A stretch of DNA of 64,000 nucleotides from an uncultured Bordetella sp. (GCA_964652785.1 CAZZDV010000001.1:116-64115); one strand, 5' to 3'; counted from the first letter of the stretch, positions 11,527 through 15,710 are shown. Translations and numbers: made by a program. The notes: generated by a model not told the origin, from the sequence alone.

Positions 11527-12347
11527 CCGGCCGACCAGTTCACGACGCCGGTATACGCGGTCAGCAGGACCGCAATCCCGAAAATGATGCGATACCAGGC
11601 GAATACGGTGAAGTCGTGGGTGGTGATGTAACGCAATAGCCAGCGCACGCACAGGAAAGCCGAGATGAAGGCGGTGATCCCGCCGACGGCGAACAGGCCG
11701 ATGTCGTTCACGCTGAGCAGCGCCCGGTTCTTGAACAAGTCGTACGCGCCGGCCGCAATCAGTGTCGGCACCGCAAGGAAAAACGAAAACTCGGTGGCGG
11801 CTCGGCGCGAAAGGCCGAACATCATGCCCCCGACGATGGTCGCGCCCGAGCGCGACGTGCCGGGAATGAGCGCAAACGCCTGCGCACACCCGACTTTCAG
11901 CGCGTCCTTCCACGTCATGTCATCGACGTTCTCCACGCGCACCTTGCGCGGCCGTCGCTCGATCCACAGGATGATGAGGCCACCGATCACGAAGGCCAGC
12001 GCCACGGGCACAGGCTTGAAGAGCTGCGCCTTGATCATTTTCCCAAAGATAAGTCCTAGAACCGCAGCCGGCATGAACGCAATGACGAGGTTGGTCATGA
12101 ATCGCCGGGCCGCCGGATCGCTGAACATGCCGCTCAGCACTTTCGCAAAGCGCGCCCGGTATTCCCAGATGATGGCCATCATCGCGCCCGTCTGGATCAC
12201 CATGTCGAAAACCTTGGCCCGGTCGTCGTTGAAGCCGAGCAGGTCGCCGGCCAGGATCAGGTGCCCGGTGCTCGAGATCGGCAGGAACTCGGTCAGCCCC
12301 TCGACGACCCCGAGGACGATCGCGCAAACCCAGTCGTGAAGCGTCAT
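11523..12347 (-). CDS. uppP: Undecaprenyl-diphosphate phosphatase
   Basis: 274 aa polytopic membrane protein. [18 protein letters not shown] and [10 protein letters not shown] are BacA/UppP motifs. Confidence 0.9.
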
Positions 12348-13636
12348 GGCTCAGCCGCGCGTTCGGTGAGCTTCTTGTTCGCCGCGGAAAGCCGCTCGAT
12401 CAGGATTCGCATGAACGATTTGTTGAACTGGACCTGGCACGCATCGCTCGCGGCCGACAAGGAGGTCGCTTTGATTTCCAGCACCAGGACCGACGACGTG
12501 GAGCGGATCGTGGTGCTGCGCATTGCGGTATCCGAGGTGAAGTAGAGCATCTCGCCGAAACAGTCACCCGCGCCAAGCGTGGCGAGGGCGTGGCCCTCGC
12601 GCGAAACGTCGCACCGCCCGTCAACCAGGATGAAGAACCCGTCGCCGCGCTCGCCCTCCCTGATCAGCAGGCGGTTGGCAGGCATGTGTCGCCAAGCCGA
12701 GATCCGCAGCGTTTCCCAGATCTCCACATCCCGGAAATCGCGAAAGAAGGAAAGGTTGCGCAGCAAGTGGAACTTTCGTGTTTCGGAGAAATCCTCCCGC
12801 GGCGCCTCCAGTTCACGGAAGAGCGCCGCCAGGTCCTTGCCGAACTCGATCCAGTTCTGGTAGCGCCGTGTCACGTCCTTCTGCATTGCGCGCTCGACGA
12901 TAGCCTCTATGGCGGCCGGGAGGTTCTGGCGGATCGACGAAAGCTGCGGTGCTGAGTGATTCACGATCTGGTACATCAGGCTTGCCTGCGAGGAGGCTTT
13001 GAAGGGGAGCCTGCCGGTGAGCAGCTGGAACATCACCACGCCAAGCGAATAGATGTCCGTCTGGTGCGTGAGTTCGCGGTCGGTCAGCTGCTCCGGCGAC
13101 ATATAGGCCGGTGATCCCGCGTTGCCGATGTTCGTGTGTGTGGCTTCTTCCAACTGGGCGACGCCGAAGTCGGCGAGCTTGACGTCGAATTCCTCGGTGA
13201 CGAGGATGTTGGCCGGCTTGATGTCCCGGTGGATGATGCCCATCCGGTGGGCGTATTCGAGCGCCCGGCTGCACTTGAAGACGACTTCGACGACTCGCTC
13301 GAGCGGCAGCAGGTTGTCCATCACCGCGTATTGCGCAAGCGTGCCACCGGCAATGTAGTCCATCACTACATAGCTGTACTCTTCCTCGACCGCGGCATCC
13401 AGTAGTGACACGATGTGCGGATGCTCGAGCTTGCCGACGAGCGCCGCCTCGGTCAGGAAAGCGCTGCGATGCTTTCCGCCAAATGAAGGATCCTCGGCCG
13501 CGTGGTTGAAGATCTTGATCGCGACGTCACGCTCGGAGAATGTGTCGCGGGCCCGATAGACGGAGCTCGTCGCCCCGCGCCCAAGCTCTCCGAGGATGAG
13601 GTATTTGCCGATCGAGGCCGGCGCGTTGGTCGACAT
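12344..13636 (-). CDS. Hanks-type Ser/Thr protein kinase fused to a C-terminal cyclic-nucleotide-binding domain
   Basis: 430 aa. Kinase motifs: G-loop [15 protein letters not shown] lysine, [16 protein letters not shown]. The C-terminal cNMP domain has GDCFGEM...RSTTIRS (phosphate-binding-cassette-like). Its stop overlaps the uppP ATG (ATGA). Confidence 0.85.
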
Positions 13637-13652
13637 GCGCGCGCGTTTCCCG

Positions 13653-15566
13653 CTAGGTCTTGTGGTAGATCTGCGCGCCTTTCTTCACGAACTCGATCGC
13701 CTTCTCTTGCATTCCCTTGTTGAGCGCGTCATTTTCGGAAACGCTGTTGTTGCGGGCATATTCGCGCACATCCTGCGTGATCTTCATCGAGCAGAAATGC
13801 GGCCCGCACATCGAGCAGAAGTGCGCCACTTTCGCGCTGTCCTTCGGCAGGGTCTCGTCATGGAAATCCTTTGCCGTGTCAGGATCGAGCCCCAGGTTGA
13901 ACTGGTCCTCCCAGCGGAACTCGAATCGCGCTTTCGACACCGCGTTGTCGCGAATCTGGGCGCCGGGATGACCCTTCGCGAGGTCGGCCGCGTGAGCCGC
14001 GACCTTGTAAGCCATGATGCCGTCCTTGACGTCCTTCTTGTTCGGCAATCCAAGATGCTCTTTGGGGGTCACGTAGCAGAGCATCGCAGTTCCGTACCAT
14101 CCGATCTGCGCGGCGCCGATGGCTGACGTGATGTGGTCGTATCCGGGGGCGATATCCGTGGTCAACGGTCCCAGCGTATAGAACGGGGCCTCCTTGCACC
14201 AGTCGAGCTGCAGGTCCATGTTCTCCTTGATCAGCTGCATCGGGACATGGCCCGGCCCCTCGACCATGACCTGGACATCGTGCTTCCATGCAACCTGCGT
14301 GAGCTCGCCTAGCGTCTTCAGCTCGCCGAGCTGAGCTTCATCATTCGCATCGTAGATCGAGCCGGGACGCAGCCCGTCTCCAAGCGAGAAGGAGACGTCG
14401 TACGCCTTCATGATCTCGCAGATATCCTCGAAATGCGTATGGAGAAAATTTTCCTTGTGGTGGGCAAGGCACCACTTCGCCATGATCGAACCGCCGCGTG
14501 AAACGATGCCCGTCATGCGGTTTGCGGTAAGCGGCACGTACCGCAGGCGGACGCCGGCATGGATGGTGAAGTAGTCCACGCCCTGTTCGGCTTGCTCGAT
14601 CAGCGTGTCCCTGAAGATCTCCCAGGTCAGTTCCTCCGCTCGGCCGTCGACCTTCTCAAGCGCCTGGTAGATGGGCACCGTGCCGATCGGGACGGGGGAA
14701 TTGCGGATGATCCACACGCGGGTTTCGTGAATGTGCTTTCCTGTCGACAGGTCCATCACGGTGTCGCCGCCCCAGCGAATCGACCAGGTCATTTTCTCCA
14801 CCTCCTCGCCGATCGAAGAACCCAGCGCCGAATTGCCGATGTTGGCGTTGATCTTCACGAGGAAGTTGCGCCCGATGATCATCGGCTCGGATTCGGGGTG
14901 ATTGATGTTCGCGGGAATGATCGCGCGGCCGCGGGCCACTTCGCCGCGCACGAACTCCGGCGTGATCGAGTTGGGGATTTCTGCGCCGAAGCGCTCGCCT
15001 TTGTGCTGCCGCCCCATCAAGGCCGCAAGTTTTTCGCCCATCGGACCGGTTGCTCTCAGGCTCTCGAGATACTCCTCGCGCCGCAGATTCTCGCGGATCG
15101 CAATGAACTCCATCTCGGGCGTGATGATTCCTTGCCGGGCATAGTGCATTTGCGAGACGTTCTTGCCCGCCTGTGCACGACGCGGTTTGCGGCTCAGGTT
15201 GAAGCGAAGCTCGCCGAGCTTTGGATCGGCCATGCGTTCCGCCCCGAACCGGGAAGTAGGCCCGGGCAGGCTCTCGGTGTCGCCGCGCTCTTCGATCCAC
15301 CGGCCGCGCAACGGCGCCAGACCCGAACGGATATCGATCTTCACTCCTGGGTCGGAATAAGGACCGGAAGTGTCGTACACCCAGAGCGGGGGATTTGCCT
15401 CGGCGCCGAACTCCGCGGGAGTGGCCGCCTGAGAAATCTCGCGCATGGGGACGCGAAGGTCCGGGCTTGAACCGGCGACGTAGACTTTGCGGGAGTTGGG
15501 CAGCGACTTGACCGCCGCCTCATCTACCTGGGCGGTCGCAGCAAGGAATTTCGGGTTGGCGCTCAT
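13653..15566 (-). CDS. thiC: Phosphomethylpyrimidine synthase
   Basis: ORF 13653..15659. Family-typical start [10 protein letters not shown] at internal ATG 15566. Radical-SAM ThiC C-terminal [11 protein letters not shown] motif. Confidence 0.95.
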
Positions 15567-15624
15567 GTTCGCTCCTGTCGTAGTTCGCACGGGGAGCGGA
15601 CGGACGCCGCAGCAAAAAGCCGGG

Positions 15625-15710
15625 CGGCCAACGCTTCCCTGCGGCGGCATTACCCGCATCAGGTTCGAAGGGTTTCTCTCACCCGGGGAACATCCCCAGG
15701 ACCCCTACGC
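15625..15710 (-). promoter_or_regulatory. TPP (THI-box) riboswitch in the thiC leader
   Basis: The minus strand reads GGGGTCC...GGGTGAGAGAAACCCTTCGAACCTGATGCGGGTAATGCCGCCGCAGGGAAG. This matches the conserved CUGAGA / ACCUGAU..GGNUAAUGCC..CG..GGGA core. Boundaries are approximate. Confidence 0.85.

Follow-up and report, generated by a model that had tools for sequence, protein, structure and literature searches.

The window analyzed here, a stretch of 64,000 nucleotides from an uncultured Bordetella sp. (GCA_964652785.1 CAZZDV010000001.1:116-64115), encodes between thiC and uppP a soluble Hanks-type Ser/Thr kinase of 430 aa with a cyclic nucleotide (cNMP)-binding (CNB) domain at its C terminus. 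Our results favor, with some reserve, the interpretation that the position of this gene reflects descent and a clade-specific operon arrangement of a CNB-gated, PknB-like kinase, and not a module of kinase, cNMP and UppP that is maintained throughout the kinase family. A regulatory module of this kind, proposed for this locus in a preliminary description of the window, is not established. All coordinates refer to the whole 64-kb window, and the gene string is read on the minus strand at 11.5-15.8 kb.

Domain architecture of the kinase

The kinase gene (12344-13636, minus strand) was characterized by Pfam searches, alignment, an AlphaFold2 model and Foldseek comparisons. Its catalytic domain (aa 14-259; 12860-13597, minus strand) matches PF00069 with 181.3 bits against a cutoff of 31.7 (E 3e-53) and contains G19/G21, K41, E63, H136-R137-D138, K140, N143, D156-F157-G158, S180-P181-E182, D194 and R258, catalytic residues that are invariant or almost so in an alignment of 84 homologues. 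The kinase is of the RD type; its activation loop contains T166/T168, and its glycine loop, GxGxxS, resembles that of PknB. A model of the full protein derived from the 84 homologues (predicted local distance difference test score, 88.5; predicted template modeling [TM] score, 0.77) has PknB kinase domains as its top Foldseek matches (E ~4e-23; TM score normalized to the target, 0.85-0.91; 33-35% identity), while StkP and PknB are the nearest solved relatives of the catalytic domain by sequence (E ~1e-43). The profile match, the full set of catalytic residues and the bilobal fold together identify a Hanks-type Ser/Thr kinase whose catalytic domain is closest to the PknB/StkP/Stk1 group in sequence as well as in fold (TM ~0.9). 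The PASTA kinases PknB, StkP and PrkC have a transmembrane segment and PASTA repeats, whereas Pfam and NCBIfam searches found neither in the window kinase, whose sensor is the intracellular C-terminal CNB domain. With the PASTA-kinase model NF033483 the match reached 274.6 bits (cutoff, 450) and spanned model positions 7-277 of 563 only.

The beta-barrel of the CNB domain (aa 316-394; 12455-12691, minus strand) matches PF00027 with 52.1 bits (cutoff, 27.5) and contains a phosphate-binding cassette (aa 360-376; 12509-12559, minus strand) that runs from F360-G361-E362 to R373-S374-T375. None of the 84 homologues departs from G361 or R373, and at least 90% of them share E362 and T375. An alignment of 14 sequences that extends down to 31% identity shows no change at the cassette Arg or Glu, homologues also keep the flanking FG and Ser/Thr, and distant family members have a cassette of the form R[STNQ]A[ST]. 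DSSP assignments on the AlphaFold2 model place helices at 285-312, strands at 313-389 and helices at 390-428, with a C-terminal helix of ~30 residues (aa 398-428) lying behind the barrel. The C-terminal 150 residues are nearest to the solved CNB domains of PKG, PKA-R and MlotiK1. The profile match, the Gly-Glu...Arg-[Ser/Thr] cassette and a barrel flanked by helices are thus all present, and these features support true binding of cyclic nucleotide by the CNB domain of the family. The preliminary description had credited the kinase with all catalytic motifs and an apparently intact cNMP-binding cassette; the Pfam matches, the individual residues and their conservation in the 84 homologues confirm both.

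It could be argued that the CNB-like domain does not sense cyclic AMP (cAMP) or cyclic GMP (cGMP) at all, and that it binds another ligand or acts as a dimerization or autoinhibitory module, so that the protein would not be gated by a second messenger. The window clade has RSTT where R-x-A-T is usual, its cassette is presumably 1-2 residues longer than that of PKA or CAP, and no cyclase gene was found in the 64-kb window among the called genes and their Pfam matches. Folds of the CNB type with other ligands are also precedented: CooA binds haem and CprK binds chlorophenols, and some cassettes are altered (Kannan et al. 2007, PMC2246266), while nucleosides are described as ligands of trypanosome PKA (PMC10959531). 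However, the residues that hold the phosphate and the ribose are the conserved ones, including the invariant Arg and the nearly invariant Glu, and each of the nearest solved relatives (PKG, PKA-R and MlotiK1) truly binds cNMP. We therefore regard a domain that senses neither cAMP nor cGMP as distinctly unlikely.

A kinase and a canonical CNB domain are likewise combined in PKG and in the regulatory and catalytic subunits of PKA. The CNB domains of PKG are the best solved matches to the C-terminal domain, and the expected logic is the same, with cNMP relieving or altering autoinhibition of the kinase. However, the PKG and PKA kinases belong to the AGC group whereas the window kinase is PknB-like, PKG chains matching it chiefly through their CNB domains. 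PKG and PKA have tandem N-terminal CNB domains or a separate regulatory subunit, while the window protein has a single CNB domain that is C-terminal to the kinase and, unlike PKG and PKA, no recognizable pseudosubstrate or leucine zipper. As judged from sequence, the combination is an independent domain fusion and not a PKG homologue. The sensor fold and the cassette are shared with CRP/CAP, MlotiK1/SthK, the CNB-GNAT protein Rv0998, CNB-HisK proteins and myxobacterial CNB-PP2C proteins; the output here is a Hanks kinase.

We propose that this cytosolic kinase would bind cAMP or cGMP through Glu362 and Arg373 of its canonical CNB domain, that the bound ligand would shift the linker and the long C-terminal helix, and that activation-loop autophosphorylation at T166/T168, and hence substrate phosphorylation, would change. 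The terminal helix (aa 398-428) may mediate dimerization, as in CRP.

Extent of the kinase family

Relatives were sampled by a scan of a genome collection, by exact-protein look-ups and by a metagenome scan that started from an alignment of the CNB-specific C-terminal region; the resulting loci carry L numbers. The genome-collection scan, performed with the full-length alignment, contributed nine useful loci (L001-L009), the other 71 of the 80 listed (L010-L080) being unrelated kinases. A protein database search gave 7984 matches, the best 120 of which (54-93% identity) were all Pkinase plus cNMP_binding proteins of ~425 aa. Searching with the C-terminal region found many 50%-identity cluster representatives of ~425-445 aa that matched at ~265-430, and each CNB match in the metagenome scan that was not truncated by a contig end also had a kinase domain. 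Database entries for members read either 'cyclic nucleotide-binding domain-containing protein' or 'serine/threonine protein kinase'. The family is a large, experimentally uncharacterized one of ~425-aa proteins in Beta- and Gammaproteobacteria, and the window gene is a further member of this catalogued but uncharacterized family.

Position of the kinase gene in the betaproteobacterial clade

We compared 12 distinct kinase-bearing betaproteobacterial loci, whose kinases are 61-100% identical to that of the window (uppP was located by tblastn in L101 and L136). In all 12 loci, the kinase gene is directly followed by uppP in the same orientation, at a distance that ranges from -4 nt (an overlap) to +52 nt. 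Conservation of this adjacency in relatives had been set beforehand as a refutation test of the proposed module, and it held throughout the clade. The details of the junctions are less uniform. In the window, thiC is separated from the kinase gene by 16 nt and the kinase gene overlaps uppP by 4 nt; L095 (22 nt from thiC) and L179/L180 (24 nt) have the same 4-nt overlap with uppP, and the combination of the ATGA overlap with a thiC-kinase gap of 16-24 nt is restricted to these loci. The gap between thiC and the kinase gene is 192 nt in L084 and ~190 nt in L100, both with 52 nt before uppP, and ~860 nt, with no coding content identified, in L136, with ~5 nt before uppP. Other genes intervene on the thiC side in the remaining loci: a short-chain dehydrogenase/reductase (SDR) gene follows thiC in L081-83 (44 nt between kinase and uppP), a hydrolase gene does so in L092/93 (26 nt) and L106 (39 nt), and a divergent bufferin-type cluster is present in L088/89 (5 nt), L099 (5 nt) and L101 (8 nt).

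All 12 loci also carry a whole backbone that extends from thiC through uppP to a convergent rhodanese gene, glnA, a DUF4124 gene, ntrB and ntrC. In the window, uppP (bacA; undecaprenyl-diphosphate phosphatase, 274 aa) occupies 11523-12347 on the minus strand and matches Pfam BacA with E 2e-87 and NCBIfam NF001389 with 424.8 bits (cutoff, 262). The rhodanese gene, recognized by Pfam, lies at 11080-11526 on the plus strand, in a position that is identical in all backbone loci, and is followed by glnA (9408-10820, minus strand), in the same order as in relatives, by the DUF4124 gene (8740-9267), by ntrB (7659-8732) and, closing the backbone, by ntrC (6231-7628, taken from the listing of open reading frames). 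As the kinase-uppP adjacency is part of this vertically inherited backbone, it is weak evidence of function.

The backbone also exists without the kinase. Among relatives sampled through UppP, three of four have it in this form, with a UppP 76-79% identical to that of the window: uppP follows thiC after 58 nt in L096, after a YidB gene in L097 and after genes for a glutathione S-transferase (GST) and a polyhydroxybutyrate (PHB) depolymerase in L098. Clear intrinsic terminators lie just 5' of uppP in L096 and L097. A neighbor-joining tree of UppP plus ThiC intermingles kinase-less and kinase-bearing loci; this pattern implies that the kinase was lost or gained more than once, with uppP staying in place. 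Across genomes, the interval between thiC and uppP holds the kinase, the SDR, the hydrolase, the bufferin cluster, YidB, or the GST and depolymerase, a variety that would mark it as a hotspot of gene turnover. The bufferin-type cluster, which specifies a ribosomally synthesized and posttranslationally modified peptide (BufA1 precursor, MbnB/DUF692, HvfC and DoxX), lies between thiC and the kinase gene at 3486-5822 of L088 and also in L099 and L101.

These comparisons suggest a model in which the kinase gene would have been inherited in a variable slot of the string thiC...slot...uppP-rhodanese-glnA-ntrBC, always directly 5' of uppP.

Junctions and promoter-like motifs

The string in the window starts with a thiamine pyrophosphate (TPP) riboswitch aptamer (THI element; 15618-15716, minus strand), which matches the full length of Rfam RF00059 with 63.3 bits (gathering score, 54.3). 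A few bases 5' of it, a putative -10 hexamer of thiC, TATAAT (15723-15728, minus strand), was recognized by eye; it is absent from the output of a consensus sigma-70 scan. The minimum free energy and centroid folds of 15555-15720 both predict a hairpin (15570-15598, minus strand) that pairs AGGAG (15572-15576), the Shine-Dalgarno sequence of thiC, with GCUCC, and a U-run at ~15607-15611 sits in a hairpin loop of the predicted fold and not behind a stem. The expression platform of thiC thus looks like a translational one, predicted to sequester the Shine-Dalgarno sequence, rather than a terminator. A terminator-like match at 15632-15619 was rejected, as it lies inside the riboswitch with its U-run in a hairpin loop of the predicted fold.

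The thiC gene itself (phosphomethylpyrimidine synthase, ~637 aa; 13653-15566, minus strand) matches Pfam ThiC_Rad_SAM with E 4e-183, together with the ThiC-associated domain. Its maximal reading frame (13653-15659) extends into the riboswitch, and the ATG at 15566-15564, with AGGAG in front of it, was taken as the start, which also fits the lengths of homologues (623-641 aa). Between the thiC stop and the kinase ATG at 13636 there is a spacer of 16 nt, cgggaaacgcgcgcgc (13637-13652, minus strand), in which neither a terminator nor a -10 element was found; at the other end of the kinase gene, its stop codon and the uppP start codon overlap in ATGA (12344-12347, minus strand). The preliminary description of these junctions, with a riboswitch-controlled thiC upstream, a kinase start 16 nt past its stop, no visible terminator and an overlap with uppP, is borne out by the sequence and by the Rfam and ThiC profile matches, the sole correction being the thiC start at 15566.

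Other relatives contain promoter-like motifs that the window lacks. The motif GGTAGCAT is conserved ~35-45 nt upstream of the kinase start in six loci (L084, at ~5950-5965; L100, L088, L099, L101 and L136), is kept whatever gene lies upstream, and falls within the thiC-kinase spacer of ~190-192 nt in L084 and L100. An extended -10-like sequence, TGCTA(A/C/G)(C/G)AT, precedes the uppP ATG by 9-10 nt in five kinase-bearing loci (L081, 7308-7316; L084, 7316-7324; L100, L092 and L106); an mRNA started so near the ATG would be leaderless or almost so. The pattern TGnTAnnnT is rare in the window, with seven occurrences in 128 kb of strand, and there is none on the coding strand of the 11.5-15.8 kb region. 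Likewise, GGTAGCAT is absent near the window kinase, and the coding strand contains no TAnnnT hexamer in the final ~150 nt of thiC or in the final ~140 nt of the kinase gene. The TATAAT of thiC escaped the consensus scans for sigma-70 promoters and terminators, which are too insensitive in this GC-rich genome to be decisive.

The conserved motifs before the kinase gene and before uppP in relatives make separate promoters the likely ancestral state, and in a relative of the L084 type separate transcript starts should be expected at GGTAGCAT and TGCTACCAT. The tight thiC-kinase-uppP string, from which both motifs are missing and the spacers deleted, is then best read as a derived compaction confined to the window subclade. 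According to our model, the ancestral kinase gene and uppP would each have had a promoter-like element of their own, and the window subclade would have lost both spacers, leaving thiC, the kinase gene and uppP in one string; the thiC promoter probably drives its transcription, and translation of the kinase gene and of uppP is probably coupled. Because the junctions leave no room for a promoter or a terminator, cotranscription of the three genes and translational coupling of the kinase and uppP are the simplest reading, and cotranscription from the thiC promoter is plausible in the window subclade. The earlier suggestion of a thiC-kinase-uppP transcript with translational coupling therefore stands for the junctions of the window; it does not extend to the clade, as the ATGA overlap and the juxtaposition with thiC are found in the subclade only and relatives have promoter-like motifs. 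Since the riboswitch platform appears to sequester a Shine-Dalgarno sequence, any effect of TPP on the downstream genes would be indirect only, through polarity or mRNA stability.

Contexts of the kinase in other clades

In other clades, more than 60 loci of the family were compared, and uppP adjoins the kinase gene in none of them. In 16 loci (~43% identity; gammaproteobacterial, Steroidobacteraceae/Woeseiaceae-like; L006, L008, L155, L159, L164, L165, L167, L168 and L171-L178) the kinase gene follows ribBA-ribH-nusB-thiL-(pgpA) and faces a convergent folE2-dxs-ispA string. It lies between fhs and glcD in eight loci, between a selU-like and an MltF-like gene in five, after argH in four, and between mpl and ubiX or after a gene for a resistance-nodulation-division (RND) pump in one each. 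A CheA-like hybrid histidine kinase gene (three Hpt domains, HATPase, CheW and receiver) adjoins the kinase gene in 10 loci of two clades, upstream with a 4-nt overlap in L108-L111, upstream and closely spaced in L001, and downstream in L005, L155, L162, L174 and L175; it is the sole recurrent signaling neighbor of the family. Neither the called genes of the window nor the neighbor clusters of relatives yielded a recurrent partner of the cyclase, PP2C or FHA type. The housekeeping strings in question (thiC...ntrBC and ribH-nusB-thiL-pgpA/dxs-ispA) have a variable slot, with the kinase gene co-directional and at the end or inside; none is known as a regulatory unit that includes the kinase, and they also occur without it.

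These contexts bear on whether the kinase senses a cyclic nucleotide to regulate UppP or the recycling of the lipid carrier, joint dosage of the two genes linking a second messenger to the envelope and lipopolysaccharide (LPS). Adjacency in all 12 loci of the clade, in the same orientation, at short distances and with nothing between the two genes even though the thiC side is variable, would be expected from such a link, as would the 4-nt overlap in the window subclade. Members from other clades lie near thiL-pgpA/dxs-ispA (the 16 loci), near mpl/ubiX, an MltF-like gene, a heptosyltransferase gene and a gene for a LysM protein, and Hanks kinases such as PknB and StkP control cell-wall synthesis. 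However, the envelope-related neighbors were spotted post hoc, and each belongs to an old housekeeping string; that of the 16 gammaproteobacterial loci is the classical nusB-thiL-pgpA/dxs-ispA locus, which in Escherichia coli presumably has no kinase. In kinase-less relatives uppP occupies the same place at ~76-79% identity, five kinase-bearing relatives have a conserved extended -10 element of its own before uppP, and no other clade of the family has the kinase beside uppP. The active site of UppP faces the periplasm in known structures, leaving little cytosolic surface for a kinase. Judged by the three kinase-less loci, the terminators and the extended -10 elements, uppP does not depend on the kinase gene for its position or its expression. 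Of the proposed envelope module, therefore, the adjacency survives within the clade, while the kinase-less backbone and the contexts of other clades speak against the remainder; we consider it unlikely that the kinase regulates UppP.

A broader proposal is that the family constitutes a true bacterial cNMP-dependent kinase, analogous to PKA and PKG, that regulates polyprenyl or lipid-phosphate carriers and thiamine/1-deoxy-D-xylulose 5-phosphate metabolism, placed under a TPP riboswitch in the window lineage. The partners behind this idea are uppP in Betaproteobacteria and the thiL-pgpA/dxs-ispA locus in Gammaproteobacteria. The thiamine link, with thiC here and thiL in Gammaproteobacteria, is suggestive yet compatible with chance given the many pathways that could be shared, both being old housekeeping strings, and was not retained. 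The recurrence of thiL and of lipid-phosphate or isoprenoid neighbors may be a coincidence or a weak functional hint. We consider the broader proposal very improbable.

One further context is unusual. A second kinase gene in L090 (ERZ25039477 contig_8917) lies among IS110 and DDE transposase genes; it is 63% identical to that of the window and is sister in the kinase tree to the copy in L084, from contig_21677 of the same sample. Provided that both contigs come from a single genome, the kinase gene would appear to have been duplicated or mobilized recently. More generally, the intermingling of kinases from the conserved block and from elsewhere in the kinase tree points to secondary moves and duplications.

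These observations raise the question of whether the kinase is an accessory gene, perhaps of an antiphage or conflict type, in an integration-prone slot, its CNB domain receiving a cNMP alarm as in Pycsar systems. Its patchy presence among close relatives, the unrelated cargo of the thiC-uppP slot in different genomes and the paralogue amid transposases would fit such a role. The PADLOC kinase models PD-T4-6 and Mad6 match with E ~1e-80 to 1e-68, and the CNB domain of PycTIR is among the weak PDB matches. However, the PADLOC matches span the generic kinase domain only, with scores equal to those of PknB-type models (NCBIfam, 274.6 bits); identification as a defense system from the PD-T4-6 match was rejected as generic kinase-domain similarity. 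No cyclase, defense gene or mobile element adjoins the kinase in the window or in the conserved classes of context, and neither the adjacent nucleotide cyclase nor the defense island of a Pycsar-type system was found among the window genes and the neighbors of the kinase in related loci. The kinase gene lies in stable housekeeping strings that are passed on within clades, and kinase identity declines in step with the divergence of UppP and ThiC. A defense role is thus highly improbable, and inheritance with the backbone is the interpretation that we retain.

Other features of the window

The region between thiC and waaA (15830-23145, plus strand) contains genes for a TetR regulator, an RND efflux system (membrane-fusion protein, 16476-17651; pump, 17660-20773), a small rhodanese and an outer-membrane factor (21787-23145). 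In L081, the TetR, membrane-fusion protein and pump genes are likewise beside thiC, and several other relatives have a PCMT-type methyltransferase gene instead; the TetR/RND flank of thiC is thus also variable.

An LPS core/O-antigen locus extends over ~23175-58215, with waaA, three GT9 heptosyltransferase-like genes, a gene for a WaaL-type ligase, several GT1, GT2 and GT4 genes, an MsbA-like ABC exporter gene, manC and two copies of rmlC (40463-40993 and 48290-48841). The G+C content falls to 0.55-0.59 between ~41 and 50 kb, suggesting a horizontally exchanged O-antigen segment. The preliminary description had connected this locus with the kinase and uppP; the locus is real, but its link to them is one of physical proximity only, within a conserved backbone. 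A TonB-dependent receptor gene (58270-60480, minus strand), presumably for a BtuB-type vitamin B12 importer, has a cobalamin riboswitch (60408-60647, minus strand; 105.6 bits) directly in front of it.

Discussion

Our analysis separates two questions, what the kinase is and why it lies beside uppP. Bacteria are known to couple cNMP to outputs beyond CRP (PMC2246266; PMC2887360). The bacterial CNB families described by Kannan et al. in 2007 do not include a fusion to a Hanks kinase (PMC2246266), nor is this fusion mentioned in two surveys of prokaryotic kinase architectures, while a 2024 survey found CNB to be one of the few accessory domains common to the Ser/Thr kinases of Planctomycetota and the kinases of yeast and Caenorhabditis elegans (PMC11032199). 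We found no experimental study of a bacterial Hanks kinase with a CNB domain in the searchable literature, and the family is for this reason a reasonable biochemical target. The same literature yielded nothing specific on control of UppP by a kinase and no kinase/cNMP/UppP module, in agreement with the preliminary description, which knew of none.

Several observations weigh against an explanation by descent and operon arrangement of a CNB-gated kinase. The sample of kinase-less backbones is small (n=3 loci). Adjacency in 12 of 12 loci, the lack of any insertion between the kinase gene and uppP, and the envelope- or isoprenoid-flavored neighbors are compatible with a real functional link and are not predicted by descent alone. 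Promoters inside the coding sequence of thiC or of the kinase gene are possible. With respect to gating, cNMP binding is inferred from motifs in a fold that in some proteins takes other ligands, and the window clade departs from the usual cassette in having a Thr after R-S.

The likely consequences are therefore of two kinds. Bacterial signaling by cAMP and cGMP is usually explained through CRP-type transcription factors; if our interpretation of the CNB domain is true, these widespread Hanks kinases would connect cyclic nucleotides directly with protein phosphorylation in Proteobacteria. The locus also shows that tight gene overlaps can arise through compaction without implying an old functional unit. 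If thiC, the kinase gene and uppP do form one transcript, the window subclade would have placed an enzyme of the lipid carrier downstream of a thiamine riboswitch.

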